Source: Candidatus Falkowbacteria bacterium (GTDB taxonomy: Bacteria; Patescibacteriota; Patescibacteriia; JAACEG01). From it: a DNA stretch of 64,000 bases. Position 1 is the first letter of the stretch. Each line of letters starts with the position of its first letter. The position numbers were made by a program, and so were the translations under genes. Shown one piece after another: positions 1 through 16,517 of this stretch. Where the stretch lies: assembly GCA_018651725.1 (NCBI GenBank), contig JABIDK010000005.1, positions 64,064 to 128,063 of the forward strand, given 5' to 3'. The notes below the pieces were generated by a model, which saw only the letters and a program-made list of their open reading frames with translations, was not told the DNA's origin and did not search any database.

Positions 1-1190
1 TTGTCCTAGAAGGATACTACGCAAAAGATAAAAACAAAGTTTATCTGGCTAAACCAGTTTTGACCGGCAATATGTCTGCTAATCTTACTCCTGGGATTAT
101 AGAGGCCGCCGATCCGAATACTTTTAAAGTTCTGCCCTTTGATTATTCAAAAGACAAAAACAATGTTTATGTATTTGATCAAATAGTGGAGGGGGCTGAT
201 GTGGAGACTTTTGTTTCGTACAGCGGTGTAGCTAGAAAAGATCCAAAAATTAATGAAGGCGAAGGTAGATACAATGCAGAAGATAAAAATTATAAGTATT
301 TTCATGGCAATCGTGTCGGTGTAGCAAAATCCAACAACACTGAATTTATAAACGACTATTTTTCCAAAGACAACGATTACGCTTACTATAATTTAGAAAA
401 AATTGAAGGAAGCGACAGTTCTTTTTTTGAGGTAATTGAGGGTGGCAAATGGGTAAACGTATACGACAAAGGAAAATATGCCAAAGATAATATTAATTAT
501 TACTTTGAGAACAAAATCGTAAATGAAATTGATGGCAACACCTTCGAAATCTTAAGTACTAATTACGCAAAAGATGAATACAATGTGTATTTTAGTGAAA
601 AAATTCTAAAAAACGCAAACCCGCAAACATTCAGTGTTAAGTGCTTGATTCCAAGCACCACTAGAATAGATGGATGTGAATATGCGCACGATGATAACAA
701 TCTTTACTACAATGGTGAAGTGATTATTGGTTCAAACCCAAAATCTTTCGAAATAAAAAGAGAAAGTGTTAATGGAATAAATATTGATTCGAGAGATTTT
801 ATTAATCTTTATAATCAAGGAAAAGTTGTCGAAAAGAGAAATCTTGAAGATATTAACGGATTTATAAATGTTTCCATCACATTAAAGGATAGAGCGATTA
901 CACAATCTACTAAATATGTTTACGAATATGATGAATATGAAAATTATAAAAAAGAAATTGAAAATATAGGTGGTATTGGTACCCAATCTGCAATAACCAA
1001 AGGGATAAACGGAAATATTTATGGTGCAAATATTTATTCAAATATTCCGATTGACTATCTAATAAATTTCATAAAAAAAGATTGGATAAAATCAATTCGC
1101 AATACTTCAGATTTTGATATGAGCAACAAACTTAGACAACACAAGAACGCTATAGAAGAATCTAGAAAAATAATTAAAGAAATAAGCTAA
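1..1190 (+). CDS. DKNYY-repeat family protein, 5'-truncated by window edge
   Basis: The reading frame is open from nt 3 (VLEGYYAKDKNKVYLAKPV...) upstream of the tracked Met at 60. It carries repeated D-K-N-x-Y-Y/YxF motifs (DKNNVYVFDQ, KDNDYAYYNL, KDNINYYFEN, KDEYNVYFSE, DDNNLYYNGE) spaced about 30-40 aa apart, typical of the DKNYY repeat family. The stop codon is at 1188-1190. Confidence 0.6.
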   Translation, partial: VLEGYYAKDKNKVYLAKPVLTGNMSANLTPGIIEAADPNTFKVLPFDYSKDKNNVYVFDQIVEGADVETFVSYSGVARKDPKINEGEGRYNAEDKNYKYFHGNRVGVAKSNNTEFINDYFSKDNDYAYYNLEKIEGSDSSFFEVIEGGKWVNVYDKGKYAKDNINYYFENKIVNEIDGNTFEILSTNYAKDEYNVYFSEKILKNANPQTFSVKCLIPSTTRIDGCEYAHDDNNLYYNGEVIIGSNPKSFEIKRESVNGINIDSRDFINLYNQGKVVEKRNLEDINGFINVSITLKDRAITQSTKYVYEYDEYENYKKEIENIGGIGTQSAITKGINGNIYGANIYSNIPIDYLINFIKKDWIKSIRNTSDFDMSNKLRQHKNAIEESRKIIKEIS

Positions 1191-1620
1191 AAGGAGTTTT
1201 GGGGTAAAGGGAATTCACCCCTTTAATTCCCCTCTTCCCTTTACCCAAAACGAAAAACAAAATTAAATTCTTTTTAAAAGTGATTTGCATTCGCAAATCA
1301 AAGAAAAACATATACATCAGCTAACAACACGATATCCGGTTACGGCTCTTCCGAGAGCCTCCACCCAAATTTTCTTTCGCTCCGCTCCAGAAAACTTCGG
1401 ATATCGGTAACAGTTATACGAAATAAATTTTTTATCTATACTAGTATTTAAAATTCAATGCGTTGAACACAGCGAAAATTTGATTTTTATTTAATTAATA
1501 AGGGGTAATAAGGAATATTTTTTGTCTTTAAAAAATTCTGGTAACAGAAAAATAATATTTTAATAAGTATTAACTTTTTTTGAAATTAGCTTTAGCTATA
1601 TAAGAAAAAATAATAAAAAA
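1191..1620 (+). repeat. Intergenic repeat module M1: H1 hairpin plus conserved blocks
   Basis: It shares blocks with modules at 2752-3153, 3981-4575, 9964-10221 and 14979-15405. These are TACATCAGCTAACA..CGGTTACGGCT..GCCTCCaCCCAAATTTT (near-identical to M5), CTCCGCTCC, AAAACTTCgGATAtcGGTAACAGTTATACGAAATAAATTTTTT, and ATTAATTAATAAGGGGTAATAAGG. Confidence 0.7.
1196..1251 (+). repeat. Structured hairpin element H1, copy A. Stem GTTTTGGGGTAAAGGGAA / TTCCCTTTACCCAAAAC, 21-nt loop TTCACCCCTTTAATTCCCCTC.
   Basis: It starts 6 nt after the stop of the upstream CDS and is preceded by AAGGAG. The 5' arm is 18 nt and the 3' arm 17 nt, leaving one unpaired G in the 5' arm. The loop is identical in copies A, B and D; copy C differs at two positions. 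Confidence 0.8.
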
Positions 1621-2751
1621 ATGGAATCACTAGATAATTTCAAACAATACTCAAAAAAGGAGGCGCAAGAAAAAGGAAAAGAAATGCAGGAAAAAATTAA
1701 ATCTGGAGAAGCGAAAGACTTTAGAGAAGCAGAGCAATCTGTTGAAAAAGAGCAAAAATTTGATTTAACCATAGATCAGATCACATCTATGCAGAGCATA
1801 GAAGATCTTTTTTCTAAAAGTAAGGATGTGCATACTGAACAAAATACAAATTTTATAAAATCTCTGAAAGAGTATATTGATGACTCTTCATTGCCGCAAG
1901 ATTTAATTATTTTAATTATAGAAAAAAATATTTTAAATAATTCTAATATTACAACAGACTTTGAGTACTCTTCACCAGAATGGCTAAGTGCTATAGTTTC
2001 AAGATTAAATCCTGAGCAAAAGAAAGAGTTTATCAAAAAAAGAGTTAAACTTTCTTTGAGTGTTCCTGAGATGATTCCAAGAATGATTGAACTATATTCT
2101 GTAACAGTTGATGATTATCGAAATGAATTTTTAAATAATCTTTCATCACAAAAGTATGATGGTTTAATCAATTATAGTAAAGGATTGTCAAAAAGATATA
2201 AAGAAGTTGGAATATCCTGCTTTGATGACGCAAAAGACAGAGAAGCACGCTTACCATTTCCTTGTGATGAAAATATTTTACTAAGATTGTTCCCAGACTT
2301 TTTTAATAGTCAAGTTTCGAATTCGTTAAAAAAAATTAAAATAAAAAAAACTGCAGAAAAAAATAAAGACCTCATGGATTTTTATTTCGTAACTATGGGT
2401 GGGGGCGGAGCAAATATTTTATCTAGTAAAAAAGAGATGAATATTAAAAAGATTGATAAAACAATTGAGAGCTCTTTAAAAGAAATTAATAATATACTTA
2501 CATCAACTGGTGATATCACCAAACAAAGCGTTATAGATCAATTAACAAATCAAGCTTTTGATACTATGTTTAATAGTATGCTTGAGGGAAGAACGCTTAC
2601 TATAAATTATACTGATTCCCAGGTTAAAGCAATGAAGAATGTTATTTCTAACTTAAATACTATCCGCAATAAGTATGAACTATCAGAAATTAGACCTGAA
2701 GACATAAACAAATTAGTTGAATATTTAAAGATAAAAACTGATACCCCCTAA
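1621..2751 (+). CDS. Hypothetical Lys/Glu-rich protein (376 aa), no recognisable domain
   Basis: Long ORF between two repeat modules. It has no signal peptide or TM segment and I recognise no motifs. Confidence 0.5.
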   Translation: MESLDNFKQYSKKEAQEKGKEMQEKIKSGEAKDFREAEQSVEKEQKFDLTIDQITSMQSIEDLFSKSKDVHTEQNTNFIKSLKEYIDDSSLPQDLIILIIEKNILNNSNITTDFEYSSPEWLSAIVSRLNPEQKKEFIKKRVKLSLSVPEMIPRMIELYSVTVDDYRNEFLNNLSSQKYDGLINYSKGLSKRYKEVGISCFDDAKDREARLPFPCDENILLRLFPDFFNSQVSNSLKKIKIKKTAEKNKDLMDFYFVTMGGGGANILSSKKEMNIKKIDKTIESSLKEINNILTSTGDITKQSVIDQLTNQAFDTMFNSMLEGRTLTINYTDSQVKAMKNVISNLNTIRNKYELSEIRPEDINKLVEYLKIKTDTP

Positions 2752-3153
2752 AAATATAAGGAGTTTTGAAAAAATGGAATTCACCCCTTTAATTCCCCTC
2801 TTCCATTTTTTCAAAACAAAAAATCAAATTTTCTTTTCTAGTAGAAAAGAGTAATCGCAATTAAAACGAGATAAAAAATTTACATCGCACAACAAAGAAT
2901 ATCTGGTTCAAAATATTTAATTTTAAATTATAATAAGGATTTAAATATTACTCACCCAAATTTTATTTCGTTTCACTTAATAAAACTTCAGATATTCTTA
3001 AACGTTGTACGAAATAAATTTTTTCATTCTATTTTCTTAACAAGTATTTCCTTATAACCACGGCGAAAGTTTATTTTTTTATTAATTAAAAGGGGAAATA
3101 GGTTATTTTCTCCGCTTCGCTACGAAAATAAATTTATTAAATTAACAAAAACT
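2752..3153 (+). repeat. Intergenic repeat module M2
   Basis: Its blocks are H1, the small hairpin CTTTTCTAGTAGAAAAG, CACCCAAATTTT, AAAACTTCAGATATTCTTAAACGTTGTACGAAATAAATTTTTT, and TTATTAATTAAAAGGGGAAATAGGTTATTTTCTCCGCTTCGCTACGAAAATAAATTTATT. The last block is nearly identical to 10128-10195. Confidence 0.7.
2773..2827 (+). repeat. Structured hairpin element H1, copy B. Stem GTTTTGAAAAAATGGAA / TTCCATTTTTTCAAAAC, same 21-nt loop.
   Basis: The 17-bp stem is perfect and completely different in sequence from copy A, but fully compensatory. The loop TTCACCCCTTTAATTCCCCTC is identical. Confidence 0.8.
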
Positions 3154-3624
3154 ATGTCACAAATTGAAATTATTGAACACAAAAATCACAAATTCATGTT
3201 CTTGGATGATTATCTTTGGATGTGGGACACACCACAAGAAAAAGAGTTACAAGAAGATTTAGCCAAACAAGCATATGGGGATGTGTTAATCGCAGGATAC
3301 GGATTTGGTATTTTATCAAAATACGCCCTAGATAACAAAAATATAAAAACAGTCAACACTGTTGAAAAATATCAAATTGTTATTGATAAAATGAAAGAGT
3401 TTGGTCACATATATGGAGATATAACTATTAACGATTACTATGATTTGCCAGAAGAAAAAAAATATGATTGTATTATTGGCGATATATGGCCAGACATTGA
3501 CGCAAAATTTTTAGATGATTATATCAAATTTAAAAATAAATCTAATCAAATATTAAAAAAAGGCGGAAAATTATTGGCTTGGGGAGGTGATTACTACGAA
3601 TATTTGATTAATTCAAAAAAATAA
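3154..3624 (+). CDS. Short spermidine-synthase-like class I MTase-fold protein (156 aa)
   Basis: VLIAGYGFGILSKYAL..VNTVEKYQIVID resembles the aminopropyltransferase motif I (VL.IGGGDGG..E..VE.D..Vi). DCIIGD resembles the D-V-I-I-V-D segment. It sits immediately upstream of speH with a 2-nt gap. It is too short for a canonical SpeE. Confidence 0.45.
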   Translation: MSQIEIIEHKNHKFMFLDDYLWMWDTPQEKELQEDLAKQAYGDVLIAGYGFGILSKYALDNKNIKTVNTVEKYQIVIDKMKEFGHIYGDITINDYYDLPEEKKYDCIIGDIWPDIDAKFLDDYIKFKNKSNQILKKGGKLLAWGGDYYEYLINSKK

Positions 3625-3626
3625 TT

Positions 3627-3980
3627 ATGAAAAACGGAACACATTTATTAGTTGATATAAAAAATTGCAAAAAAATAAAAGAGTTGTCTGATACTAAAGT
3701 TATCACCTCTTTCCTTGTTAAACTAATCAAATTAGCAAAAATGAAAGCCATAACAGAGCCAAAGGTAATGTATTATGAACACGAAGATAAAATTGAAAGT
3801 GGTATTACCGGTTTTGTAATCATCGCGGATAGTCATGTGAGCATTCACACATATCCTTTAAAAAAATCATTTTACCTCGACCTATTCTCTTGTAAAAAAT
3901 TTAATGAAAAAGAAATAATTAAATACACAAATGAATTTTTTGGAGGCAAAAAAATAAAAAGCCAACTTATCAAAAGATAG
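3627..3980 (+). CDS. speH: S-adenosylmethionine decarboxylase proenzyme, pyruvoyl-dependent class 1b (SpeH/SpeD-like)
   Basis: G-HLLVD..C ... GITGFVIIADSHVSIHTYP ... YLDLFSCKKF matches the small AdoMetDC signature (G.TG.v.l.ESHisIHTwPE ... D.F.C), including the Ser of the self-cleavage site. Confidence 0.8.
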   Translation: MKNGTHLLVDIKNCKKIKELSDTKVITSFLVKLIKLAKMKAITEPKVMYYEHEDKIESGITGFVIIADSHVSIHTYPLKKSFYLDLFSCKKFNEKEIIKYTNEFFGGKKIKSQLIKR

Positions 3981-4038
3981 TATTAATTATACTTATAAAG
4001 TAGTTACTTTTTAAAATAACAAAAACTAAAAATAAGGA

Positions 4039-4093
4039 GTTTTGGGCAAAGAGCATTCACCCCTTCATTTCCCCTCTGCTCTTTGCCCAAAAC
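4039..4093 (+). repeat. Structured hairpin element H1, copy C. Stem GTTTTGGGCAAAGAGCA / TGCTCTTTGCCCAAAAC, loop TTCACCCCTTCATTTCCCCTC.
   Basis: The 17-bp stem is perfect with compensatory changes. The loop differs from the other copies at two positions. Confidence 0.8.
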
Positions 4094-4498
4094 AAAAAAA
4101 TTAAACTTTCTTTTCTTTCAGAAAAGATTTAAACTGTTAACAAAAAAATTTACTACGTACAACACGGTGTATCTGGTTACAGAAAATTTCAATATAAAAA
4201 CATCCTGTTACGCTATCGCTTCACAGGATTAATAATAAGGAATAAAATTTTCTTCCACGCAAATCCAAATCTCTTTTATATTAATTTAAAAATGTATCGA
4301 TTTGGACTTCAGATGACACCGAAACGTTATCTGAAATTTTTACACTGCCTTGATGAGTGCCTCTCAAGTAAACCTCTACTTTTTAACGGTGCCTCTTTCG
4401 TTTAGACGAGAAAAGAAAAAGAATTCAATTGCTTCACAACAAAATATAACATTGTCTAAACGGTTCACTTCGTTCTCCCAAATTTTTCTCTTACTTGG

Positions 4499-4511
4499 GG
4501 GGGTCGCCATT
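4499..4511. repeat. GC-rich 13-bp inverted repeat GGGGGTCGCCATT, left copy. Its partner is at 9089-9101.
   Basis: Perfect reverse complements bracket the ABC transporter operon. The right copy begins inside the ATPase stop codon. Confidence 0.7.
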
Positions 4512-4575
4512 TGAAAACATTTAAAAACAATTATATACTACTTAATATAATAATAACTAAAAGAGGTATAATACT

Positions 4576-5562
4576 ATGAAAAACACAATTTTTGCTCTAA
4601 CAATCATCGCAGTTTTGCTATTAGTTGGATGTACGCAAGTACAACAAGATAAAGAATTAAAAGATTTTAAATTAAGTGTAAACACTTGGGTTGGTTTTGG
4701 TCCTTTTTATTTAGCCGATGAACTTGGATATTTTGAAGATGAGGGATTAGATGTAGATATTATTGTCATGGAGGGAACAGCTGAAAGAAAATCCACCATG
4801 ATAACTAATAAGATTGATGCTTTAGGGGACACAGTTGATTTATTGGTTTTAGCAAGAGATGAGGATGTGCCTGAAGTTGCAGTTTTAGAAGTTGATCTTT
4901 CTGATGGTGCTGACGGTTTAATTGCTACAGAAGATATCCAATCATTAGCAGATCTTAAAGATAGAAAAGTTGCTGCTCAAAAGAATTTTGTTGGGGAATC
5001 ATTTTTGCTCTATCTACTAAAAAAGAATGGAATGTCAGTAGATGATGTAACAATTATTGACACAGAATCAGGAGCAGCAGGAGCGGCTTTTGTTGCTGGA
5101 CATGTTGATGCTGCTGTCACATGGGAACCTTGGTTAAGTAAAGCAAAAGAACGAGAGGGTGGCCATATAGTTATAGATAGCGCAGATGAGCCAGGAGTAA
5201 TTGTTGATATTCTAACGGTCAATGAAAATGTTCTTAAGAACAGACCTGACGAAGTAAAAGCTTTAATGAGAGCATGGTTTAAAGCCATTGATTACTGGGA
5301 AAAGAATCCTGATGAAGCAAATGTAATCATGACAAAACACTATGATATGCCAGTAGAAGAATTTGCAGATATAATTTCTGGTGTAAAATGGCCAAGTTAT
5401 CAAGAGAATCTAGCTTACTTTGGAACATCAAATAATCCTGGAATGATTTACGATGTTGCCGATACTTTTGGAGAGGTCTTTTTAGAAACAGGCTCTATCA
5501 GTGTAAAACCGGACTTAAATAAAGCGATTGACGAATCATTGCTTGTTAATCTCTATAAATAA
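4576..5562 (+). CDS. ABC transporter substrate-binding lipoprotein, NMT1/SsuA (NitT/TauT) family
   Basis: Signal peptide with lipobox LLVGC. The VTWEPW motif and overall periplasmic-binding-protein character match sulfonate/nitrate/thiamine-precursor SBPs. Confidence 0.7.
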   Translation: MKNTIFALTIIAVLLLVGCTQVQQDKELKDFKLSVNTWVGFGPFYLADELGYFEDEGLDVDIIVMEGTAERKSTMITNKIDALGDTVDLLVLARDEDVPEVAVLEVDLSDGADGLIATEDIQSLADLKDRKVAAQKNFVGESFLLYLLKKNGMSVDDVTIIDTESGAAGAAFVAGHVDAAVTWEPWLSKAKEREGGHIVIDSADEPGVIVDILTVNENVLKNRPDEVKALMRAWFKAIDYWEKNPDEANVIMTKHYDMPVEEFADIISGVKWPSYQENLAYFGTSNNPGMIYDVADTFGEVFLETGSISVKPDLNKAIDESLLVNLYK

Positions 5563-5574
5563 AAGAGGTAAACT

Positions 5575-6639
5575 ATGAACTTAATAGTAAAAGACATTGA
5601 TAGAGTAAAAAATACTTTAGAGAAGCTTCACAAAAGTAAGAAGCTTTTCTTTGCTTTATTTTTTGATGAAAGACCAGTACACAAAAAATATTTCTCTGAT
5701 GACCAAATCAGTATTCTAAAAGCGACTAATCTAATCTCAATAAAACAAAACTATATTTCTGCAAATTACAGAGTGATAAAGTTACAAAATAACAACAATT
5801 CAGCATTTATTGTAACTGATAAAGTTTCTTACAAAAAATTAGATCAAGTAATGCCCCTTCATCCTGAGAACCAATTTATAGTTGATGATATGAAAATTAA
5901 AGCTGACGATGAAGTTTTAGAAATTGGTGTTGGCAGTGGAGTTAATGTAATTTTTTCAATTATGTCCGGAGCTAAAAAAGTTACTGCTTTAGACATTAAC
6001 AAAAGAACTTTTGAATTTACAAAATTTAATGCTGCATTAAATCTCTCAAAACAAGACCAAAATAAAATTAATTTAATCCTTAATAAAAAATCCAGTTTAG
6101 AAAATATCTTTGATTCTGTGAAAAACAAGAAGTTTGATTATATCGTAACTAACCCTCCTTTTGAACCAACACCACCAAAATCAAAATATTTATTGAATTC
6201 TGCAAGTGGTATTTACGGTTTAGATGTAATAGAAGCTATCCTAAAAAAGACCAAACAGCATTTAAAAAACGCAGGATATTTACAGATGGTAACTTTTTCT
6301 CCTGGAAATCAAAAAGAACCTTTTATGCTTAAAGAAATGCTAAATAAATATTTAGGGGCAGGTATTATACATCTTAATAAAATAGGGATGAAATATGTTG
6401 ATTTTACTAAAAGATTTATTGATTTAGGTTATGATAAAGAAAAAGTAGACCTAATGAACTTACAGGCAAAAAAAGATAAAGTAACACATTTATATCTAAG
6501 CATGGTTCAGTATAATAATCAAATGGAAGATGTTAAAATTAAAACTTCAACTAAAATTTACAAGAATTGGGACATTCCTATTTATTCTGATGTGCCAATG
6601 GGGTTTAAACCTAAAAAATCAAAACTAAAGTTAGATTAA
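5575..6639 (+). CDS. Class I SAM-dependent methyltransferase with NPPF motif (HemK/PrmC-like small MTase domain)
   Basis: Motif I is EIGVGSGVNV. Motif IV is YIVTNPPFEP, the N6-adenine/N5-glutamine type. It lies inside the ABC transporter operon, 12 nt after the SBP and 1 nt before the permease. Confidence 0.55.
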   Translation: MNLIVKDIDRVKNTLEKLHKSKKLFFALFFDERPVHKKYFSDDQISILKATNLISIKQNYISANYRVIKLQNNNNSAFIVTDKVSYKKLDQVMPLHPENQFIVDDMKIKADDEVLEIGVGSGVNVIFSIMSGAKKVTALDINKRTFEFTKFNAALNLSKQDQNKINLILNKKSSLENIFDSVKNKKFDYIVTNPPFEPTPPKSKYLLNSASGIYGLDVIEAILKKTKQHLKNAGYLQMVTFSPGNQKEPFMLKEMLNKYLGAGIIHLNKIGMKYVDFTKRFIDLGYDKEKVDLMNLQAKKDKVTHLYLSMVQYNNQMEDVKIKTSTKIYKNWDIPIYSDVPMGFKPKKSKLKLD

Positions 6640-6640
6640 C

Positions 6641-7408
6641 ATGAAAAATAGATTAAAAACATTATTATGGGGATTATCTTCGTTTATTGTAATTATAATT
6701 ATCTGGGGTCTCTTTACTTATACAAGAATAATCAAACCTTTTTTTCTGCCAACGCCGACTGAAGTTTTAATTGCATTATTTGATTTATTTACCAAGTATA
6801 ATTTTATTGAAGATGTTTCTATTAGTGTTTTCAGGATTTTAACAGGCTTCATTATTGCCGTTATTATGGCAATCCCTGTTGGTGTCTCCATAGGGTTAAG
6901 CAAAAAATTTCAATCATTTATAGAACCAATCATTGATTTTATTCGTTATACTCCAATTCCTGCATTTATTCCTCTTCTAATCCTTTGGTTTGGTATTGGA
7001 GAATTAGAAAAAATCATCGTCATCGTATTAGCAGTATTTTTCCAATTAGTATTAATGGTGTCTAATTCAATTTCTCATGTGCCAAAAGACATTATAGAAT
7101 TCGCTAAAACCTTAGGAGTAAATAAAAAAGAACTTATTACTAAAGTTATTTATCAACATGCTAAACCTAGAATTTTTGATGATCTAAGAGTTTCAATGGG
7201 TTGGGCATGGGCTGGTTTAATGATTGCAGAAATTGTCGGAGCAACTTCGGGTATTGGTTTTGTTATTATTCAATCTCAAAGATTATTAAGAACAGAAAAT
7301 GTTATTTCCGCAATTATAATTGTCGGCCTGTTAGGGTTAATAACTGATTTTGTATTTAAAATTGCCTATAAGAAACTTTATCCTTGGGCAGAAAAAGAAA
7401 CACAATGA
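6641..7408 (+). CDS. ABC transporter permease (SsuC/TauC-type inner membrane component)
   Basis: About six TM helices. The binding-protein-dependent transport permease signature region is present. Confidence 0.75.
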   Translation: MKNRLKTLLWGLSSFIVIIIIWGLFTYTRIIKPFFLPTPTEVLIALFDLFTKYNFIEDVSISVFRILTGFIIAVIMAIPVGVSIGLSKKFQSFIEPIIDFIRYTPIPAFIPLLILWFGIGELEKIIVIVLAVFFQLVLMVSNSISHVPKDIIEFAKTLGVNKKELITKVIYQHAKPRIFDDLRVSMGWAWAGLMIAEIVGATSGIGFVIIQSQRLLRTENVISAIIIVGLLGLITDFVFKIAYKKLYPWAEKETQ

Positions 7409-9090
7409 AACCAAAACTTAAAATCAATAAAGTATCTAAGATTTTTGTAGATGATTCTGGAAAGAAAATAGAAGCTATCAAAGATATTTCAGTTGATGTT
7501 GCAGATAAAGAATTTGTTGCTATTGTTGGCCCATCTGGTTGTGGAAAAACAACTCTATTAAAAACTGTAGCAGGACTTCTTGAACCAACAAATGGTGAAA
7601 TCTACTTAAATAATAAAATAATCAATCAACCACAAAAAGAAATGGGCCTAGTTTTTCAAAACCCAGCTTCTTTTTCTTGGCTAACTGTTTTAGAAAATGT
7701 TGAATTCGGATTAAAATTACAGAATATCCCTGAAAGAAAAAGAAGAGAGATTGCAGGCCATTTTATAGACTTAGTTGGTTTATCTAGTTTTGAAAAATCA
7801 TATATTAAAAATCTTTCAGGAGGAATGAAGCAACGAGTTGCCATAGCAACAGTTTTAGCTAACAACCCAGATATTCTATTAATGGATGAGCCTTTTTCTG
7901 CTTTAGATGCCCAAACAAGAGCTTTAATGCAGGAATTAATTCTTACAATTTGGGAAGAAACAAAAAAGACAGTCCTTTTTGTCACTCATGATATTGAAGA
8001 AGCAATTTTTTTAGCAGATAGGGTCTATGTGATGAGTGCAAAGCCAGGAGAGATTAAAGATGTTATTAATATTAATCTACCAAGAGATAGAACTCCTGAA
8101 ATTAAATTATCTGATGATTTTCTTAGAATAAAAAAACATATCTCATATATCATCAGGGGAGAAGCAATTAAAGCAGCCCATGTAAATGTAGAATCACTTA
8201 GACCAAAAGCATTAAGAGTTGGAACTCATACTTGGCCAGGTAACAGCCCTTTCTATTTAGCAAGAGAAGTAGGTATATACAAAAAGAAAAAATTAGATGT
8301 AGAATTGTTAAGCCTTGAAAAAGAAGAAGACAGGATTAAAGCTCTACAAAATGGAGAAGTAGATATTCTTAATTTAACAGCTGATGGCGTAGTCTTAGCA
8401 AAAGAGAGAGGTTTAGATTTACAGATAATTGCTTGCCTTAACAAATCAATTGGTGGAGATGCAATTTTAACCAAGAAAGAGATCAAGAAAGTTGAAGAGT
8501 TAAGAGATAAAACTATTGCCATTGAAAGAGGATGGATTAGTCATTTCTTTTTATTGTATGTACTAAAAAAACATGGAATGGATGAAAAAAATGTTAAAAT
8601 AGTCCACATGAGGGGAAGTGATATAGGCGCAGCTTTAATTGCAAATAAAGTTGATGCTGCTGTTCTTTGGGAACCCTGGCTATCTCAAGCGCAGAAACTT
8701 TCAAGTACAAAAACTCTTATCTCCACTAAAGAAGAACCCGTAATAATTGATGTTTTAGCAACTACTAAAGATATTGCCAAGAAGAAAAATATTGAAATTA
8801 AGAAATTTGTCAATTCATGGTTTGAATCATTGAATTATGCTGATAGAAATAAAGAAAGAGCACACACTCTAATGGCCATCCCTCTCGGAATCTCTACAAA
8901 AGAACTCAGAGAATTATTAAAGCAACTTCAGTTTATTGACATAAACTATAATAAAAAACTATTAGGGACCAAAACCAACCCTGGAACTCTGATAAATTTA
9001 ATAGATAAAATATCTGATGTTTGGTTATACAACAAACAAATTAAAAATAAAGTGAATAGTAAAAACTTAATTAATTCTGATTTTATTTAA
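7405..9090 (+). CDS. ABC transporter ATP-binding protein fused to a C-terminal NMT1/SsuA-like substrate-binding domain
   Basis: Walker A GPSGCGKTT, ABC signature LSGGMKQRVAIA, Walker B LLMDEPFSALD and H-loop FVTHD are present. The C-terminal half carries WEPW and aligns with the SBP at 4576. The start is placed at the ATG overlapping the permease TGA (ATGA coupling); the track start at 7384 is also possible. Confidence 0.75.
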   Translation: MKPKLKINKVSKIFVDDSGKKIEAIKDISVDVADKEFVAIVGPSGCGKTTLLKTVAGLLEPTNGEIYLNNKIINQPQKEMGLVFQNPASFSWLTVLENVEFGLKLQNIPERKRREIAGHFIDLVGLSSFEKSYIKNLSGGMKQRVAIATVLANNPDILLMDEPFSALDAQTRALMQELILTIWEETKKTVLFVTHDIEEAIFLADRVYVMSAKPGEIKDVININLPRDRTPEIKLSDDFLRIKKHISYIIRGEAIKAAHVNVESLRPKALRVGTHTWPGNSPFYLAREVGIYKKKKLDVELLSLEKEEDRIKALQNGEVDILNLTADGVVLAKERGLDLQIIACLNKSIGGDAILTKKEIKKVEELRDKTIAIERGWISHFFLLYVLKKHGMDEKNVKIVHMRGSDIGAALIANKVDAAVLWEPWLSQAQKLSSTKTLISTKEEPVIIDVLATTKDIAKKKNIEIKKFVNSWFESLNYADRNKERAHTLMAIPLGISTKELRELLKQLQFIDINYNKKLLGTKTNPGTLINLIDKISDVWLYNKQIKNKVNSKNLINSDFI

Positions 9091-9101
9091 TGGCGACCCC
9101 C
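9089..9101. repeat. GC-rich 13-bp inverted repeat AATGGCGACCCCC, right copy
   Basis: Reverse complement of 4499-4511. Confidence 0.7.
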
Positions 9102-9414
9102 TATTCTAGTCTGCTACGCAGAATTTATATTAAGAAAAGTAAGAGAAAAACTACAGAGGCACCTAAAGTAGAGGCAGTGTAAAAACTCTCTTCGTTCCCT
9201 TCGGTCACTACGAGCCACGCTACGCTCTCACTTCGTTCGGGTCAGATAACAGGGCTTATGCGGAAAATGGCTCGGCTCGCCATTTTCCCAAATTGCTCCG
9301 CTTCGCTACGCAACTTCGCATAAGCCCGATGTTATATAAAATGGCCTAAATCGGCCTCATCATATAACAAGTTGTATCTAGCTACGCCAGTAAAATAAAA
9401 ATTAACTCTTTAAT
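9091..9414 (+). repeat. Intergenic repeat module M4a (variant without H1)
   Basis: It contains the nested inverted repeats GGGCTTATGCG...CGCATAAGCCC (11 bp) and AAAATGGC...GCCATTTT. It also has CTCCGCTTCGCTACG, CCCAAATT and CACTTCGTTC blocks shared with the other modules. Confidence 0.6.
9386..9414. repeat. 29-bp perfect inverted repeat, left copy (GCCAGTAAAATAAAAATTAACTCTTTAAT), ending at the ATG of the enclosed ORF
   Basis: Exact reverse complement of 9959-9987. Confidence 0.9.
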
Positions 9415-9963
9415 ATGTTTTTAAAAATTTATCTTTACATTTTATTATCTTTGTTAATACTTTTTGTTTTACATTTTTTCTTTAAATGGCAAATTCGTAA
9501 AATTATGATGCGCTCAGTTGCCAATAAGCTTGGATTGAAATATATCCCCAAAACAACCAAACCTGCTAGCAAGGAAGAGCTGCAAGAGGTGCCAGACATA
9601 CTCACAGATTCAAGTGAAAAAATTAGAAATCTAATTGAGGGTATGTACAATGGAAAAAGTATAATAATATATGAAAGACAAGTCGTCTCAGGCGCCGGTC
9701 CATACACACAACAAGCCACAACAAAAATGTTAAATATAATTATTGACGACAATAAAATTCTTGTTATTAATTGCAGCGAAATCTTGTTTCCTCTGCCTGG
9801 CAAAATAATTAAATTCATTAACGATTATATTGAAAATGGCCAGCTGCCAAAAACTAAAAAAATGAACAGCGCTTTACTGTTGGTTATTTTGATATTCACA
9901 ATCTTGCCCACAATTATAATACTTGGAATAATAGCTTTAAAATTGGATGAAGCGTTATATTAA
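9415..9963 (+). CDS. Small membrane protein (182 aa), N- and C-terminal TM helices, unknown function
   Basis: The ORF fills exactly the space between the two 29-bp inverted repeats. It has hydrophobic N- and C-termini. Confidence 0.5.
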   Translation: MFLKIYLYILLSLLILFVLHFFFKWQIRKIMMRSVANKLGLKYIPKTTKPASKEELQEVPDILTDSSEKIRNLIEGMYNGKSIIIYERQVVSGAGPYTQQATTKMLNIIIDDNKILVINCSEILFPLPGKIIKFINDYIENGQLPKTKKMNSALLLVILIFTILPTIIILGIIALKLDEALY

Positions 9964-9987
9964 AGAGTTAATTTTTATTTTACTGGC
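9959..9987. repeat. 29-bp perfect inverted repeat, right copy (ATTAAAGAGTTAATTTTTATTTTACTGGC), beginning inside the stop codon
   Basis: Exact reverse complement of 9386-9414. Confidence 0.9.
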
Positions 9988-10221
9988 TTCGCCCAAATTT
10001 TCAAAATGAATATTAATTACAATAAGAAATTTTGAAAACTTTAGATACAACTAAACGTTAGCTGAAATATTCCTTTTCTTTTTCGGGCTATCGCCCTAAT
10101 TGTTTTAAAAAATTTTCAAATTTCTTTTTTATTAATTAAAGAGGGGAAATAAGGTGTTTTCTCCGCTCCGCTCCGAAAACGATTTATTTATAGGGGAAAA
10201 CGAATACAATACAAAACATCA
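9964..10221 (+). repeat. Intergenic repeat module M4b
   Basis: Its blocks are CGCCCAAATTTTC, AAACTTTAGATAcaactaAACGTTAgctGAAATA, and TTATTAATTAAAGAGGGGAAATAAGGTGTTTTCTCCGCTCCGCTCCGAAAACGATTTATTTA. The last block is about 85 percent identical to the M2 3' block. Confidence 0.65.
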
Positions 10222-11307
10222 ATGTCAAAAATTATGGCAAAATCTTCAAATTCAAATTTTCATAGAGCGGCCAAAGCAAAAAATGATGAGTTTTATACTC
10301 AGCTTATTGATATCGAAAAAGAACTGAAACATTACAAAGACCAATTTCGTAACAAAGTAGTCCACTGTAATTGCGATGATCCATTTGAGAGCAACTTTTT
10401 TAAATATTTTGCCGCCAATTTCAAAACGCTCGAATTAAAAAGACTTATTGCAACTAGCTATAAGCCGTCTCCGATCGCAAATACACAACTTAGTTTATTC
10501 GGTGATGATAAAACACTCAAGCCCAAAAAGGGTCGCCCAAAAGTGAATGCAAACAAGTTTATCATCAACGATGTTGGCGATCTGGATGGCGACGGCGCTT
10601 TTGATTTGAAAGACGTCGCGGAACAGCTAAAGGTAAACAAAAACAACGAGTGGTTGCCGCTTGAAGGTGAAGGAGATTTTAGAAGTCCAGAAAGCATAGA
10701 GTTGCTTAAGCAGGCGGATATTGTGGTAACCAACCCGCCGTTTTCGCTCTTTCGGGAATATGTAAATCAGCTAGTTGAGTATAAGAAGCAGTTCTTGATT
10801 ATCGGCAATGACAATGCGAGAACATACGTGAATATTTTTGAACTGATACAAAAAAATAAAATTTGGGCAGGATATGGAAAGGTAAAGGAATTTATACAGC
10901 CCGACGGATCAATAAAAGGATTTGGTAATGTCGGATGGTATACGAATCTTGATGTAGCGAAGCGACATGAATCCTTAACGCTCTATAAAAAATATTCCCC
11001 AAAAGAATATCCTAAGTACGCAAATTATGATGCAATAGAAGTTAGCAAGGTTACTGATATACCTATTGATTATGACGGCGAGATGGGTGTACCGATTTCA
11101 TTTCTAGATAAATACAACCCGGAACAATTTAAAATTGTTGGGTCAAGTAGTAATCTATCAGAACCCATCAAAACAAAAGATGGTTTAGTCTACCGATATA
11201 AAGACCGTAACGGATATATGCGTCAAGCGGCAAATGAACGTTTTGCTCTTCCCGACGGTGACACTTGGCGACGCATTTATGACAGAATTGTAATTAGAAA
11301 AAAATAA
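10222..11307 (+). CDS. N6-adenine DNA methyltransferase, EcoRI-methylase-like family
   Basis: N-terminal AKAKNDEFYTQ (DEFYT signature). Catalytic motif DIVVTNPPFS (NPPF). Confidence 0.65.
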   Translation: MSKIMAKSSNSNFHRAAKAKNDEFYTQLIDIEKELKHYKDQFRNKVVHCNCDDPFESNFFKYFAANFKTLELKRLIATSYKPSPIANTQLSLFGDDKTLKPKKGRPKVNANKFIINDVGDLDGDGAFDLKDVAEQLKVNKNNEWLPLEGEGDFRSPESIELLKQADIVVTNPPFSLFREYVNQLVEYKKQFLIIGNDNARTYVNIFELIQKNKIWAGYGKVKEFIQPDGSIKGFGNVGWYTNLDVAKRHESLTLYKKYSPKEYPKYANYDAIEVSKVTDIPIDYDGEMGVPISFLDKYNPEQFKIVGSSSNLSEPIKTKDGLVYRYKDRNGYMRQAANERFALPDGDTWRRIYDRIVIRKK

Positions 11308-11308
11308 T

Positions 11309-12439
11309 ATGAAAATTGAACTAAACAACATCAAAGTACGTGAAGTATTCAACGGATACAAAGATAGTGACGAGGAAGGCGTTGTCGCATATGACGGTAA
11401 TCTTGATATTCGTCCAAAATACCAGCGCGAATTCGTGTATAAGCCAGAACAACGCAATCAAGTTATTAAAACTATTCTGCGTGGCTATCCAGACAGCGAC
11501 GCATATTTCCCACTTAATACAATGTACTGGCTTAAGACTGATGATAATCATTTTGAGATTATTGATGGTCAACAGCGTACGCTCTCAATCTGTCAATATA
11601 TAAATGGTGATTTCAGTATTGATGAGAAATACTTTCATAGCTTGAACAAAACGGAACAGGAGTATATTTTGGAATATCCCTTGCAAGTGTATATCTGCAC
11701 AGGAAGCGATAAAGAGCGGCTTGAATGGTTTGAAGTAATCAACACTGCTGGCGAAGTTTTAACACCTCAAGAACTACGCAACGCAAACTATACTGGCGAG
11801 TGGCTCACCGACGCAAAGCGATGGTTTTCTAAAAGTGGCGCACCTGCGTATCAAATTGGTCAAGATTATGTCAAAGGCTCACCTATCCGCCAAGAATTTT
11901 TGGAAAAGGTATTAAAATGGATATCTGCACGCGACTACGGTGAAGAAAATCCTGCTGAGTACATGTCTAAACATCAGCATGATAAAAATGCCAACGAATT
12001 GTGGGAGTACTTTCAGGGCGTAATTGAATGGGTGCAAGAAACATTCCCGAATTACCGCAAAGAAATGGCAAGTGTAAACTGGGGCGAGTTATACAATCAA
12101 TTCAAAGACAAAAAACTAAACGCAGAAAAACTTGAGGAAGAAATCTCAAAATTGATGCAAGACGAAGATGTCAGCAGCAAGCCTGGTATTTATCCTTATG
12201 CACTCACGAGACAAGAAAAATACCTATCTATCCGCGCATTTAATGACAAAATGAAGCGCGAGGCGTACGAGAAGCAAAAAGGAATTTGCCCGCTATGTAA
12301 AGCCAAAGATAAAAAACGCTTAGATATTTCTGACATGGAAGCCGACCATATCACCCCTTGGCATGAAGGAGGCAAAACTGTTTCAGAAAATTGCCAAATG
12401 CTGTGCAAACAATGCAATAGAACTAAATCTGGAAAATAA
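11309..12439 (+). CDS. DUF262 (ParB-like, DGQQR motif) domain fused to a C-terminal HNH endonuclease domain
   Basis: N-terminal FEIIDGQQRTLSI. C-terminal CPLC...EADHITPWHEGGKTVSENCQMLCKQCNRTKS, the canonical HNH zinc-finger nuclease motif. There is a 1-nt gap after the MTase gene. Confidence 0.7.
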   Translation: MKIELNNIKVREVFNGYKDSDEEGVVAYDGNLDIRPKYQREFVYKPEQRNQVIKTILRGYPDSDAYFPLNTMYWLKTDDNHFEIIDGQQRTLSICQYINGDFSIDEKYFHSLNKTEQEYILEYPLQVYICTGSDKERLEWFEVINTAGEVLTPQELRNANYTGEWLTDAKRWFSKSGAPAYQIGQDYVKGSPIRQEFLEKVLKWISARDYGEENPAEYMSKHQHDKNANELWEYFQGVIEWVQETFPNYRKEMASVNWGELYNQFKDKKLNAEKLEEEISKLMQDEDVSSKPGIYPYALTRQEKYLSIRAFNDKMKREAYEKQKGICPLCKAKDKKRLDISDMEADHITPWHEGGKTVSENCQMLCKQCNRTKSGK

Positions 12440-12605
12440 AAATTAAAGACAATTATGAATAGTTTGCTTGCAGAAATAAATAATGAAATCACGCCTGAAC
12501 AGAAAAAAATTTCTGAGGCTATTGATATTAAAAAATCAGAAGAAGAGATAATTTCCGATTTAATAGAAAATGATATTGTTTCTTTTGACCTTAAGGAAAA
12601 AACGG

Positions 12606-14978
12606 ATGATCAAAAAACTTAAAACAATCAATAATATTTTTTCCTATTCCTTTTTCGAGTGGGATACCATTAACCCTGTTAAGGGGGTTAACCCCAATGA
12701 TCCGATAGATATTTTTAAAAAGAATAATATTCTTTTTGCAGAAAATGGGAATGGAAAAACAAATCTGATTAATCTTCTCAAGGTGTTGAATGGTGTTGAT
12801 TCAATTAAACTTGAAAAACACTGGGATTACCCCACGGAAAATCAAAATGTTGTTTTGGAGCTTGATAATGAACTATCCTTTAATTCTGGAAATTGGAGCG
12901 AAATAAATGGATCGTTACAAGATAAGTTTGTTATCTTTGATAAGTATTTTACGGAAAAATATGTTCATTCCGTGGGATTAGATCATCACAATACAGCACA
13001 GAGAAAACAGGAAAGAGGCAAGCACATTATTTACCTGGGGAATTTTACTGAATATAATCAAGAAATAAATAAAATTAATAGACTTAAAAATGAAGTAAGC
13101 GAAAAAAACAGTGCATTTTGGACTGCTGAACAAGATAAAATAAGCAACATACTTCCTGAGTGGCTAGACATTACCAAGATTGATAGTGAGAAAAATATTA
13201 TAAAAAACATTGACCCCTTAAGTCTTTCTAGCAAGCAACAGACATTGGAAAATCAAAAAAAGAATCTTGAAAAAGTCATAAACGCCATTAAAAATCAATC
13301 CGAAATAGAGAAACTAAAAAACTTAGATGATATAAAAACGGTTTTTGATTTTAAAATTAAAGAATTTGATAAGAACGGTAAAAAAACGGTTTATCAACTT
13401 GACCCCGCCAAATTATTTAATTTTACCGTTTCCAAGGGCGTTAAGCAGACTTTATCGAAAATAAGCAATAAAAAGTCTTTTATCAAAACAGGATTGAACT
13501 TGGTTGACGATACTACGGAAGATTGCCCATTCTGCGAACAGAAAATTAAAAATGGCGAACTTATTCAAATTGTAAAAGATTACCAAAATATTTTTGATCA
13601 AACATTTTTAGATGAGGAAAGTAAAGTAAAAAACCGCTTACAGAAATATAAGACTGTTTTATCAAGTTTGAAAGATCTTCAGTCAATATCTTCTAATGTT
13701 ACAAGTTTACAGGAAGCTCAAAAATATGTAGGTGTTGATATTTCAATCCCAAATTGTTCTTTGGGCGAGGAAGACAAAAAAATAATTGAGTTAGAAATTC
13801 AACGCGTTATTGATAAAGAAAAAAATATTTTAAATCCGGTAACTGGTAGTACATTTGAACAAATCAAGAATATGGTTGATAGGGCAAATGCTTTAAAAAA
13901 GAGCTACAACAACGCTGTAGATAAAATAAACGAAAAAATAAATGAGCTTAAAAAGGTTGCAAGCGAAGGCAAGCTTGATGAAAGAAAAACAGAGATTGAA
14001 AATACAATCAGAGAGTTAGAAAAAAGCATCCTATATATTAATCATCAGAAAGATTTTTTGCGATATTTTAATGCCAAAAATCATAATAACCAAAATAAAA
14101 AAGTTATTGAGAATCTTGAAGCAATCTATCAAAAACTTAAAGAAAAAATAGTTGAAAAATTTAACAAGTTCGCAAATGAATATTTTGAGTTGATAAAGCA
14201 TTATGTAAAAATAATAAGCCCATCAATGGAAATATTTGATGTTTTAGGGAAAGGCACATACTCAAGAACCGGTCGTGAGCCTGCGCAATGCGGTTTTGAA
14301 GTTCAATACAACAAAAAGGATTGTACAAATGATCTTAGCGAAGGCGAAAGACAAGTTATCGCGCTTGCATTTTTCTTTGCTCAATTAAAAAAAGAGATAA
14401 GCAAAGATAAAATAATAATTTTAGATGACCCTATTACATCGTTTGACGCTGGAAAAAGAAAATCTACTGCAGAAGTAATTAAATCCGAGACGCAGAAATT
14501 CGATCAGTTATTCGTGTTTACTTGCGACCCTCTTTTTCGTGAGTTTTGCTTGAAAGAAATTCCAAATAGAAATTTTTACTATATTTTTATTACAAAAAAA
14601 TCTTCATCAATACATTATGTCCCCAAAAATCGAGAAACAATATATCAATCATTTGAGGAAGATTTTAAGAACATCGGAAATATCAATGGTTCAAATGAAA
14701 ATGTTGTTATTTACGGACAAAAGTTAAGGTTTTGTTTGGAAACGAAAATCAAGGAGGACTATTTTGGTTATTCACAAGATAATCTTTCAAATATGATTGA
14801 GCAGGTGGTAGAAAAAGGTAATCAAAAATTCAAAAACCTTATCGACAATAAGGAAACAATTTTGAATTTATATAATTATTGCAATACTGGCGGATTGGCA
14901 CATTACCCAAAAGACGGTTCAACAAGTTGGAACGAATTAAACAGCAAAGTACAAGAGTATTTAAATTTAAATTTATAA
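12606..14978 (+). CDS. PrrC/RloC-like ABC-type ATPase (AAA_13-like) with coiled-coil CxxC zinc-hook and an uncharacterised C-terminal domain
   Basis: Walker A LFAENGNGKTNLINLL. Long Lys/Glu-rich coiled coil containing EDCPFCEQ (CxxC). ABC signature LSEGERQVIALAFF, Walker B IIILDDPITSFD. The C-terminal about 180 aa contains LRFCLE (R-x3-E) followed by a distal His. The start is placed at the MIKKLKTINN Met with upstream AAGGAAAA; the track start at 12570 would add 12 aa. Confidence 0.6.
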   Translation: MIKKLKTINNIFSYSFFEWDTINPVKGVNPNDPIDIFKKNNILFAENGNGKTNLINLLKVLNGVDSIKLEKHWDYPTENQNVVLELDNELSFNSGNWSEINGSLQDKFVIFDKYFTEKYVHSVGLDHHNTAQRKQERGKHIIYLGNFTEYNQEINKINRLKNEVSEKNSAFWTAEQDKISNILPEWLDITKIDSEKNIIKNIDPLSLSSKQQTLENQKKNLEKVINAIKNQSEIEKLKNLDDIKTVFDFKIKEFDKNGKKTVYQLDPAKLFNFTVSKGVKQTLSKISNKKSFIKTGLNLVDDTTEDCPFCEQKIKNGELIQIVKDYQNIFDQTFLDEESKVKNRLQKYKTVLSSLKDLQSISSNVTSLQEAQKYVGVDISIPNCSLGEEDKKIIELEIQRVIDKEKNILNPVTGSTFEQIKNMVDRANALKKSYNNAVDKINEKINELKKVASEGKLDERKTEIENTIRELEKSILYINHQKDFLRYFNAKNHNNQNKKVIENLEAIYQKLKEKIVEKFNKFANEYFELIKHYVKIISPSMEIFDVLGKGTYSRTGREPAQCGFEVQYNKKDCTNDLSEGERQVIALAFFFAQLKKEISKDKIIILDDPITSFDAGKRKSTAEVIKSETQKFDQLFVFTCDPLFREFCLKEIPNRNFYYIFITKKSSSIHYVPKNRETIYQSFEEDFKNIGNINGSNENVVIYGQKLRFCLETKIKEDYFGYSQDNLSNMIEQVVEKGNQKFKNLIDNKETILNLYNYCNTGGLAHYPKDGSTSWNELNSKVQEYLNLNL

Positions 14979-15405
14979 TAATGAGTTTAAGGGCAAGGGG
15001 AATTCACCCCTTTAATTCCCCTCTTCCCCTTGCCCTTAAACAGAAAAAGAAATTTGAAAATTTTTTAAAACAAGTTTTCTTTCAGAAAACAAAAGAAAAG
15101 GAATACATCAGCTAACAGCGTATAACAGGCTACGGCTTCCCTATCGGTAAGCCTCCGCCCAAATTTTAAATTATTTCTTTGTTGTTGCTCCGCAAAATTA
15201 TAACAAAGAAATAATTTAAAACTTCTGTTATACGCATATGTTGTCCAAAATGCCTTCGCTCCACTGCGTCATTTCGGACAACAGTGGTTATCTGAAATTT
15301 CCTTCCGCCAAAACCCCTTCGGGGATTGGCTTCAGAAAACTTCAGATAACCGCGAGGCGTTATACAAAATAATAAAATTAATCTTATTAACTTAACATAA
15401 AACAT
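14979..15405 (+). repeat. Intergenic repeat module M5
   Basis: Its blocks are H1, the small hairpin GTTTTCTTTCAGAAAAC (a compensatory C/G swap relative to M2 and M3), TACATCAGCTAACAGCG...GGCTACGGCTTCC...GCCTCCGCCCAAATTTT, the arms GGTTATCTGAAATTTCC ... GAAAACTTCAGATAACC around CCCCTTCGGGG (a UUCG loop), and CGCTCCACTGCG. Confidence 0.7.
14985..15041 (+). repeat. Structured hairpin element H1, copy D. Stem GTTTAAGGGCAAGGGGAA / TTCCCCTTGCCCTTAAAC, same 21-nt loop.
   Basis: The 18-bp stem is perfect and again different but compensatory. The loop is identical to copies A and B. Confidence 0.8.
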
Positions 15406-15939: not shown

Positions 15940-16000
15940 TTTATAATTAAATCAATTGAAGTAATCAAATAAACAAGTAATGATGAAGTTAAAAACGAAA

Positions 16001-16034: not shown

Positions 16035-16057
16035 TATTTTCTTTTCTTTGGGCCTTG

Positions 16058-16497: not shown

Positions 16498-16517
16498 AAA
16501 AAATTTTTTCGAAAAAT

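Follow-up and report, generated by a model that had tools for sequence, protein, structure and literature searches.

A probable sedentary chromosomal integron in Candidatus Falkowbacteria, a lineage of the candidate phyla radiation

In the sedentary chromosomal integrons of Proteobacteria, such as the Vibrio cholerae superintegron with its V. cholerae repeats (VCR), a divergent integrase gene and an adjoining attI site accompany one co-oriented array of gene cassettes, some of them without an open reading frame (ORF), whose attC sites carry R''/L''/L'/R' boxes, resemble each other within a lineage and recombine with a crossover between the G and the TT of R' (G/TT). These integrons carry many defence, restriction-modification, GNAT and NUDIX genes, and the bottom strands of their attCs are reported to lie on the leading-strand template. 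Here we analyze a 64,000-nucleotide stretch of contig JABIDK010000005.1 (positions 64,064 to 128,063; hereafter the window) from a genome of Candidatus Falkowbacteria, which belongs to the candidate phyla radiation (CPR). The first 15.4 kb of the window share the layout, site boxes, crossover point and cargo described above, GC skew suggests the same placement of the attC bottom strands, and we estimate at roughly 0.9 the probability that this region is the cassette array of a sedentary chromosomal integron.

Two other kinds of described system come close. XerA and Xer-dif systems share with our locus a short Xer-type enzyme without accessory domains and discrete gene modules bounded by sites, yet dif-type sites are 28-bp two-arm duplexes and the pdif modules of Acinetobacter plasmids alternate in site orientation, unlike the 90-180-nt hairpin sites found here, which are co-oriented and show R'/R'' complementarity between next neighbours. 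Archaeal integrons resemble our locus in being attC arrays of uncultured small-genome lineages, known from metagenome-assembled genomes (MAGs); most of them lack a detectable IntI, with 6 IntIs per 539 attCs, and the archaeal IntIs are reported to have the additional domain specific to IntI (Ghaly et al. 2022, PMC9668308), which is cited there as necessary for IntI activity (Messier and Roy 2001, as cited in PMC9668308). The CPR enzyme, unlike the archaeal IntIs and those of sedentary integrons, has no such domain, and the supplementary sequences of PMC9668308 contain none of the CPR motifs described below. With respect to the CPR themselves, a 2021 review does not have them on its list of integron-bearing phyla (PMC8618304), the IntegronFinder 2.0 paper does not mention them, and our search of the literature on integrons in CPR/Patescibacteria, which did not reach subscription-only papers, returned resistome surveys only and no description.

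attC sites and cassette junctions

The studied region holds 13 genes in the same direction, separated by unusually long spacers of 260-600 nt, and the cassette ORFs lie on the + strand without exception. An earlier note, made from the letters alone, had described six of these spacers as modules (M1, 1191-1620; M2, 2752-3153; M3, 3981-4575; M4, 9091-9414; M5, 9964-10221; M6, 14979-15405) between functionally unrelated gene blocks, and we recover all six together with the functions it had listed, namely a DKNYY protein, a hypothetical protein, a hypothetical protein with an S-adenosylmethionine (AdoMet) decarboxylase, an NMT1-type ABC transporter, a membrane ORF between inverted repeats, an EcoRI-type methyltransferase (MTase) with GmrSD-HNH and AAA_13 genes, and a leucine-rich repeat (LRR) protein. 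The modules are mutually homologous, M1 aligning with M2 over approximately 350 nt at 66% identity and, in its 5' part, with M6 over 189 nt at 76%, and the 3' part of M2 with M5 over 160 nt at 70%; M5 is also similar to M6 in inverted orientation. The fold of M1 is more stable than that of shuffled sequence on either strand (z = -3.9 to -4.0). Four modules start, at a stop codon, with a hairpin that we refer to as H1.

We observe the same layout in every module: xxxxAAC, a 1-nt spacer, a stem of 10-13 bp, a hairpin P2 and CCACCCA(A/T)ATT, followed by a second hairpin P3, AAC(A/T)TC, the returning stem arm, a spacer of about 4 nt and GTTxxxx. This corresponds to the attC plan R''-L''-(P2, CCACCCAAATT, P3, AACTTC)-L'-R', with one or two attCs per module (two in M4 plus M5 and two in M6). 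The AAC and GTT are invariant or almost so, and the boxes (R'' AGCTAAC, GCCTAAC and GTACAAC; R' GTTAGGC and GTTATAC) fit RYYYAAC/GTTRRRY loosely. The cores are rather long, 90-176 nt, and their prevailing geometry combines unpaired spacers of 1 versus 4 nt with an L stem of 10-13 bp; the constant spacer difference provides the strand asymmetry of the site. Bulges in the L stem are absent from 75/113 folded sites, and 34/113 have 1-3 extra bases, always in the 3' arm. The claim that the sites are not classical attC was therefore wrong, given the R''/L''/L'/R' boxes with AAC...GTT, the unpaired spacer and a crossover signature at G/TT.

Furthermore, an alignment of 47 sites, which were chosen without regard to P2 and P3, has compensatory changes in 16/19 of the pairs predicted for the L stem and these two hairpins. 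A strict pattern search found an attC-type site after 53/108 H1 copies, compared with 19/324 control windows. A covariance model made from the 47-site alignment detects eight + strand sites in the window, confined to positions 1319-15365, and no site in the other 48 kb; two strong ones of the eight (attC3 and attC6a) are absent from its training set. The same model finds 225 additional sites in other loci, in same-strand arrays with a usual spacing of 0.5-1.5 kb.

The junctions between neighbouring sites show what sort of unit the array is made of. With the crossover at G/TT, the last six bases of R' come with the following cassette and have to be complementary to the R'' of that same cassette. 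In the window array, R' of one site is the exact 7/7 reverse complement of R'' of the next at 7/8 junctions, a count that takes in the step from attI (GTTAGGC) to the first attC (GCCTAAC), whereas R' matches the R'' of its own site at 7/7 in 0/8 sites. In other arrays, 42/86 adjacent pairs match at all four variable positions versus 5.3% of random pairs (P = 2e-30), and 7% of own-site pairs do so. Tandem duplication of a single unit is an unlikely source of this complementarity, since the seven R' sequences differ. Copies from different genomes lose similarity directly after ACGTT, and in a comparison that used window positions 10057-15134 the homology of cassette 6 to other genomes begins at the R' box, exactly at 10057, the G of R'. 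The cassette-array reading of the earlier note was thus right, co-oriented attCs and junction complementarity both speaking for it.

Within each cassette, moreover, the 5' end that starts at R' is complementary to the 3' end traced backward from R''. This complementarity extends over about 25 nt in most cassettes, 90/127 of which exceed the 95th percentile of the controls, and over 85-110 nt in all four ORF-bearing cassettes here, where it reaches the H1 loop. The pairing partner of that loop is a 5' block, GAGGGGAAATAAGGTGTTTTC..GAAAAC, approximately 77 nt after R', which is present in 13/26 H1 cassettes and in 2/96 cassettes without H1 (P = 8e-9). H1 and this G-rich 5' block are the outer ends of complementary arms of about 100 nt that prolong the attC of one cassette type. 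The modules look mosaic and shuffled because each runs from the 3' arm of one cassette through an attC core into the 5' arm of the following cassette. The conserved blocks quoted in the earlier note are all present and can now be assigned: TACATCAGCTAACA...GCCTCCaCCCAAATTTT covers R'', L'', hairpin P2 and the attC junction, AAAACTTCAGATA...AACGTTATACGAAAT is P3, L' and R', the inverted partners GGTTATCTGAAAT/AAACTTCAGATAACC form the L''/L' stem of the attC at 15276-15365, the degenerate CTCCGCTCCGCT runs are hairpin loops, and the 3' block ahead of the next gene is the 5' arm of the following cassette.

Short, palindromic, multi-copy intergenic sequences with covarying stems and internal inverted repeats, one motif of which (H1) occurs in at least 120 species genomes, also recall repetitive extragenic palindromic (REP) sequences and miniature inverted-repeat transposable elements (MITEs). 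We consider it extremely unlikely that the modules are selfish repeats of this sort, spread by a transposase, or decayed local duplications without cassette logic: unlike REP and MITE sequences they lie in one co-oriented array tied to a recombinase and an attI, their homology ends at G/TT, there are no target-site duplications, a scan of 2.9 million viral contigs for H1 found no copy, and neither the junction signature nor the recombinase association follows from such an origin.

The adjacent recombinase and attI

Contigs reaching further left were found by exact-protein look-up, and one of them (L121) extends the window leftward with 0 mismatches over 12,751 shared nt. From the window outward it carries the 5' part of the DKNYY gene, a module M0, a 293-aa ORF, a recombinase gene, smpB and the gene for transfer-messenger RNA (tmRNA). 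The statement of the earlier note that no recombinase is present holds within the window, where we find no tyrosine recombinase, but not beyond it: a 278-aa tyrosine recombinase with the full catalytic set R-K-HxxR-H-Y is encoded divergently at L121 2215-3051 (- strand), which is 1.7-2.5 kb to the left of window position 1, with an attI core (GTTAGGC) at L121 3130-3136 (window -1610). The platform adjoins tmRNA (L121 1153-1567, found by Rfam and missed by ARAGORN) and smpB (L121 1658-2104). In two related contigs (L144 and L149), a cluster of smpB, IF3, L35 and L20 lies approximately 4-10 kb from the integrase.

The coupling between recombinase and sites recurs in other genomes. A scan for the H1 loop, with one genome per species, gave at least 120 loci, and the search for recombinases near other module copies that had been proposed for this DNA shows a close homologue in 16 of the 120 loci listed, upstream of H1 in 16/16 (P = 1.5e-5) and on the opposite strand in 15/16 (P = 2.6e-4), which is the layout of an integron. 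When loci are centred on the integrase instead and at least 3 kb upstream are available, an attC array lies on the opposite strand in 5/5, and no attC is found downstream of the integrase in these five loci. The complement of the first cassette's R'' occurs as an exact, single match 25-102 nt upstream of the integrase start in 12/16 loci; the sequence on its left is conserved (AGTTCGNATATAACTN/GTT...) and the right half depends on the cassette, marking the match as an attI site. As side observations, integrase and array are on the same strand in L026, and one locus (L069) has facing attC arrays within 8 kb, with + sites at 524-4463 and - sites at 5781-6952. Three contigs with integrase homologues (L144, L149 and L151) stop 190-800 nt upstream of the gene, probably at assembly breaks in the repeated attC array, and CPR integron arrays may thus be under-represented in MAGs. 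When metagenomes were scanned for relatives of the integrase, 14 loci came up, most of them short or distant and none informative.

With respect to its family, the recombinase has at least 5,887 relatives at E <= 1e-30, and the best 120 homologues listed measure 260-302 aa, mostly 276-285. It aligns end to end with the XerA proteins of Pyrococcus and Thermoplasma, and it scores 145 bits against VchIntIA (aligned to the C-terminal SPL), higher than against E. coli XerD (92 bits). The alignment to VchIntIA (2a3v) comes in two pieces, skipping chain residues 183-240, where the query has 15 residues.

Several observations weigh against the integron reading. The recombinase passes the NCBIfam XerA model NF040815, which is named 'site-specific tyrosine recombinase/integron integrase', with 247.1 bits (cut-off 220) over model positions 4-262 of 263, and it falls short of the IntI models TIGR02249 (221 bits, cut-off 265) and NF011946 (136 bits, cut-off 435); the IntI additional domain, of about 43 aa, is missing; and an identity of 65-76% across CPR classes would also suit a housekeeping Xer. 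On the side of the array, the junction between attC1 and attC2 is complementary at 5/7 positions only, 66% of L stems lack the extrahelical bases typical of attC, some cassettes are, at 5 kb and three to four genes, large for an integron, and a consensus scan of window positions 1-16500 (the array only) found no cassette promoter (Pc) above chance, with 89 matches versus 73.5 +/- 9.1 in shuffles; for terminators, too, the scan did not differ from shuffled sequence. No presence/absence polymorphism of cassettes was seen among nine near-identical contigs, and activity is thus presumed. The strain comparison proposed in the earlier note as a possible refutation is mute because these nine contigs share the same array; it speaks neither for nor against a cassette mechanism.

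These observations could be read to mean that the attC array is genuine, that its neighbour is a housekeeping dimer resolvase of the XerA type, moonlighting or uninvolved, and that the array is an integrase-less cluster (CALIN), possibly frozen. The XerA and IntI model scores, the missing domain, the very high conservation across CPR classes and the invariance of the array among the available strains all agree with such an account. We nevertheless regard it as unlikely, in view of the strict positional coupling (upstream, divergent and integrase-centred counts alike), the conserved attI half-site close to the start codon, whose right half follows the first cassette, and a likeness to VchIntIA well above that to E. 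coli XerD.

The site architecture, the covariation, the junction signature, the attI site and the recombinase association are direct observations, from which we infer that the adjacent recombinase is the responsible and active enzyme and that its substrate is a folded single strand. Each cassette starts with the TT of one R' and closes with the G of the R' that follows. If the enzyme works as in classical integrons, it would release cassettes through attC x attC recombination and take them up through attC x attI recombination, with the crossover at G/TT of the folded strand. The earlier note had envisaged an undescribed cassette-capture system or a mobile-promoter/terminator system; since classical attC cores stand next to a recombinase with an attI, the element is instead an integron, and the mechanism is a known one.

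Cassette contents and the H1 hairpin

In the window, the array can be divided into seven cassettes, all on the + strand. Cassette 1 (60-1413), the 5' end of which lies beyond the window, holds the 3' part of the 530-aa DKNYY gene (to 1190), H1, a small hairpin H2 and attC1, and ends at the G of R'. Its H1 (1196-1252; loop at 1214-1234) begins 6 nt past the stop codon at 1188-1190, its H2 (1281-1300) reads TGATTTGC-ATTC-GCAAATCA, and attC1 (1319-1419; R'' AGCTAAC, L stem CGATATCC/GGATATCG, R' GTTATAC) scores 80.3 bits. Cassette 2 (1414-3004) has a 5' arm with the G-rich block at 1492-1514, a hypothetical 376-aa ORF (1621-2751), H1 (2762-2818; loop 2780-2800), H2 (2833-2849; CTTTTCT-AGT-AGAAAAG) and attC2 (2887-3010; R'' GCACAAC, R' GTTGTAC; 66 bits). 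In cassette 3 (3005-4326), a 5' arm with its block at 3080-3128 precedes a hypothetical ORF (3154-3624) and the AdoMet decarboxylase (3627-3980), followed by H1 (4038-4094; loop 4056-4076, with one substitution), H2 (4110-4126; CTTTTCT-TTC-AGAAAAG) and attC3 (4157-4332; R'' GTACAAC, R' GTTATCT), which has a long middle and scores 48.6 bits.

Cassette 4 (4327-9331) is without H1 and carries the four genes of the ABC transporter block, namely an NMT1 binding protein (4576-5562), a methyltransferase (5575-6639), a permease (6641-7408) and an ATPase-NMT1 fusion (7384-9090), and ends with attC4a (9244-9337; R'' AGATAAC, R' GTTATAT; 64.7 bits). A weak, degenerate attC-like relic without a 3' GTT lies in its 5' untranslated part (4444-4536, + strand; 19.5 bits, E = 0.012) and may be a fused or decayed ORF-less cassette. 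Although cassette 4 lacks H1, its ORF block stands between complementary sequences (4497-4510/9090-9101, and 4337-4383 versus 9135-9185), with GGGGGGGTCGCCAT upstream and ATGGCGACCCCC from the last base of the stop codon, in a G-rich/C-rich polarity like that of the 5' block and the H1 loop.

Cassette 5 (9332-10057) has a body of 25 nt with no ORF between R' and the next R'', and its attC4b (9362-10063; R'' ATATAAC, L'' GTTGTATCTA at 9371-9380, L' TAGATACAAC at 10042-10051, R' GTTAGCT) is split by an inserted ORF, the model matching the 3' half (9945-10063). This ORF (9415-9963) encodes a 182-aa membrane protein without a Pfam match, occupies the P2 hairpin loop and is flanked by 36-nt inverted repeats (9381-9416/9957-9992) that are 94% complementary; it may represent the insertion of a small element or, alternatively, an extreme 'variable terminal structure' with a gene in it. 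Cassette 6 (10058-15240) consists of a 5' arm with its block at 10130-10181, an EcoRI-type MTase (10222-11307), a GmrSD_N+HNH protein (11309-12439), an RloC-like AAA_13 protein (12570-14978), H1 (14985-15041; loop 15003-15023), H2 (15074-15090) and attC6a (15110-15246; R'' AGCTAAC, R' GTTGTCC; 73.6 bits). Its H2, GTTTTCT-TTC-AGAAAAC, differs from the CTTTTCT..AGAAAAG of cassettes 2 and 3 by the compensatory swap that the earlier note had pointed out and that is real. Cassette 7 (15241-15359) has no ORF and is practically attC6b alone, the final site of the array (15276-15365; R'' GGACAAC, R' GTTATAC; 33.4 bits); the CCCC-TTCG-GGGG hairpin at 15315-15326, previously reported for 'M5', exists as the tip of this attC, in the sixth module, which is M5 when counted from zero. 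The array ends there: the LRR lipoprotein gene (15406-15939), with an ordinary intrinsic terminator at 16000-16031, has no attC and represents either a final cassette that lacks one or the chromosome beyond the array.

The only evidence of cassette excision and insertion is indirect: the MTase-GmrSD unit of cassette 6 is found again in at least eight other CPR loci (L010, L016, L034, L067, L075, L077, L088 and L094). In L010, the pair is accompanied by an equivalent third gene of 792 aa, and in L075 the same 5' arm (approximately 90% identical) and the same H1/3' arm (approximately 85%) surround a different payload.

H1 consists of a 16-18 bp stem that varies by compensatory changes and a 21-nt loop, TTCACCCCTTTAATTCCCCTC, which occurs four times in the window versus 0.01 expected. 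The H1 loci are mostly from CPR (Saccharibacteria, Peregrinibacteria, Gracilibacteria, Magasanikbacteria, Falkowbacteria, Kuenenbacteria and Parcubacteria). Across the loci listed, 12/13 stem pairs show double changes and the upstream ORF is co-oriented in 112/116, its stop codon being most often the TAA of a conserved flank, aTAAGGAG, and lying 23 or 26 nt ahead of the loop in 40/112. The genes before H1 are defence and accessory genes, namely HEPN, AbiEii-like, AAA_13, GmrSD, DNA methylase, restriction enzyme, Fic and RhuM genes, and no housekeeping gene is found there among the loci listed. The attC follows approximately 81-90 nt 3' of H1. H1 is nonetheless optional: it accompanies 84/223 attCs and is not found in the five integrase-centred arrays, and cassettes without it carry NUDIX, GNAT, Fic and methyltransferase genes; this cargo and that of the H1 cassettes are both typical of chromosomal integrons. 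In three loci (L017 255-341, L032 4506-4592 and L115 1028-1114), H1 occurs as a tandem pair whose members are about 65 nt apart, differ in their stems and enclose no gene. The loop sequence has no literal match in the literature searched.

Three candidate functions for H1 were rejected. An intrinsic terminator is not indicated, as no T-run is found on either strand and an ordinary terminator exists downstream of the array; an anti-Shine-Dalgarno mimic or mini-ORF, judged by eye, has no usable start codon after it and nothing that covaries, despite the similarity of the loop to the 16S 3' end and of the flank TAAGGAG to a Shine-Dalgarno sequence; and an IS200/IS605 or rolling-circle-origin hairpin lacks a nearby transposase or Rep gene, the recombinase link suiting the context better. 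One copy with the exact loop (L018 6655-6725) is located in the closed chromosome of a Polaribacter MAG (OY729423.1), after a 1037-aa N6_Mtase + Methylase_S gene that stands between glycosyltransferase genes and a major facilitator superfamily (MFS) transporter gene, with no attC downstream. H1 therefore occurs also outside integron arrays and outside the CPR, which hints at a gene-linked role.

Taken as a whole, the modules might also be structured RNA, that is, regulatory domains of 3'/5' untranslated regions or copied terminator-plus-promoter units, and not recombination sites. Their constant position on the coding strand, the abutment of H1 on the stop codon, the covarying stems and the Polaribacter copy after a restriction-modification gene would all suit RNA. 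We judge this to be very unlikely, however, since the next-neighbour R'/R'' complementarity and the integrase/attI link would stay unexplained and H1 is not followed by a U-tract in a genome that has ordinary terminators. No Rfam family matches the modules either: at the gathering threshold the sole match in the window is a tRNA-Gly, and a search of M1 at E <= 10 returned nothing relevant. Mismatches in H1 stems are more often A.C (55) than G.T (32), the reverse of a coding-strand RNA signature; this difference (P = 0.018) is suggestive only, arguing against coding-strand RNA and weakly for bottom-strand or duplex DNA. Our best guess is a function of H1 as DNA and not as RNA, either within the extended folded site or as a loop bound by a protein.

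A probable variant integron and its significance

The CPR integron is a distinct variant in three respects: its integrase is without the defining domain, its attCs are long-armed with a conserved junction, and a phylum-wide stop-codon hairpin accompanies its defence cassettes. The features that set it apart from sedentary integrons include a conserved three-way junction in the attC core (CCACCCAAATT ... AACTTC), R arms of about 25-100 nt, H1 as an extra conserved element at the stop codon, and several cassettes with two to four genes. We tentatively go one step further, to a reading that we consider less likely than not, in which the CPR carry a phylum-wide, distinct class of integrons. Such a class would combine an integrase intermediate between Xer and IntI, without the additional domain, with long-armed three-way-junction attCs and a 'chassis' that may be re-used round unrelated defence genes, composed of the 5' arm with its G-rich block, the payload, and H1 with the 3' arm.

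CPR-type H1 and attC arrays were also observed in two loci labelled as archaeal genomes, a Woesearchaeota MAG (L003) and an Altarchaeum MAG (L026), and in several MAGs labelled Gammaproteobacteria, Alteromonas or Thiomargarita. The presence of these arrays in non-CPR bins could reflect mis-binning or real cross-lineage transfer of cassettes.

Integrons are defined and detected via the IntI additional domain. If a very large domain-less CPR family runs genuine attI/attC arrays, standard tools would call these arrays orphan attC clusters, and the taxonomic reach of integrons would be underestimated. The term defence 'biobanks' has been applied to chromosomal integrons (bioRxiv 10.1101/2024.07.02.601686), and the arrays described here bear on how ultra-small, streamlined CPR genomes keep an exchangeable store of defence genes. 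The CPR enzyme could be a living intermediate on the way from Xer recombinases to integron integrases, and the conserved arms and H1, re-used round unrelated genes, offer a handle on how cassettes are built. If the chassis reading is true, H1-type hairpins would mark the loading of genes into cassettes, and the CPR arrays would bear both on the origin of the integrase from Xer and on the genesis of gene cassettes.

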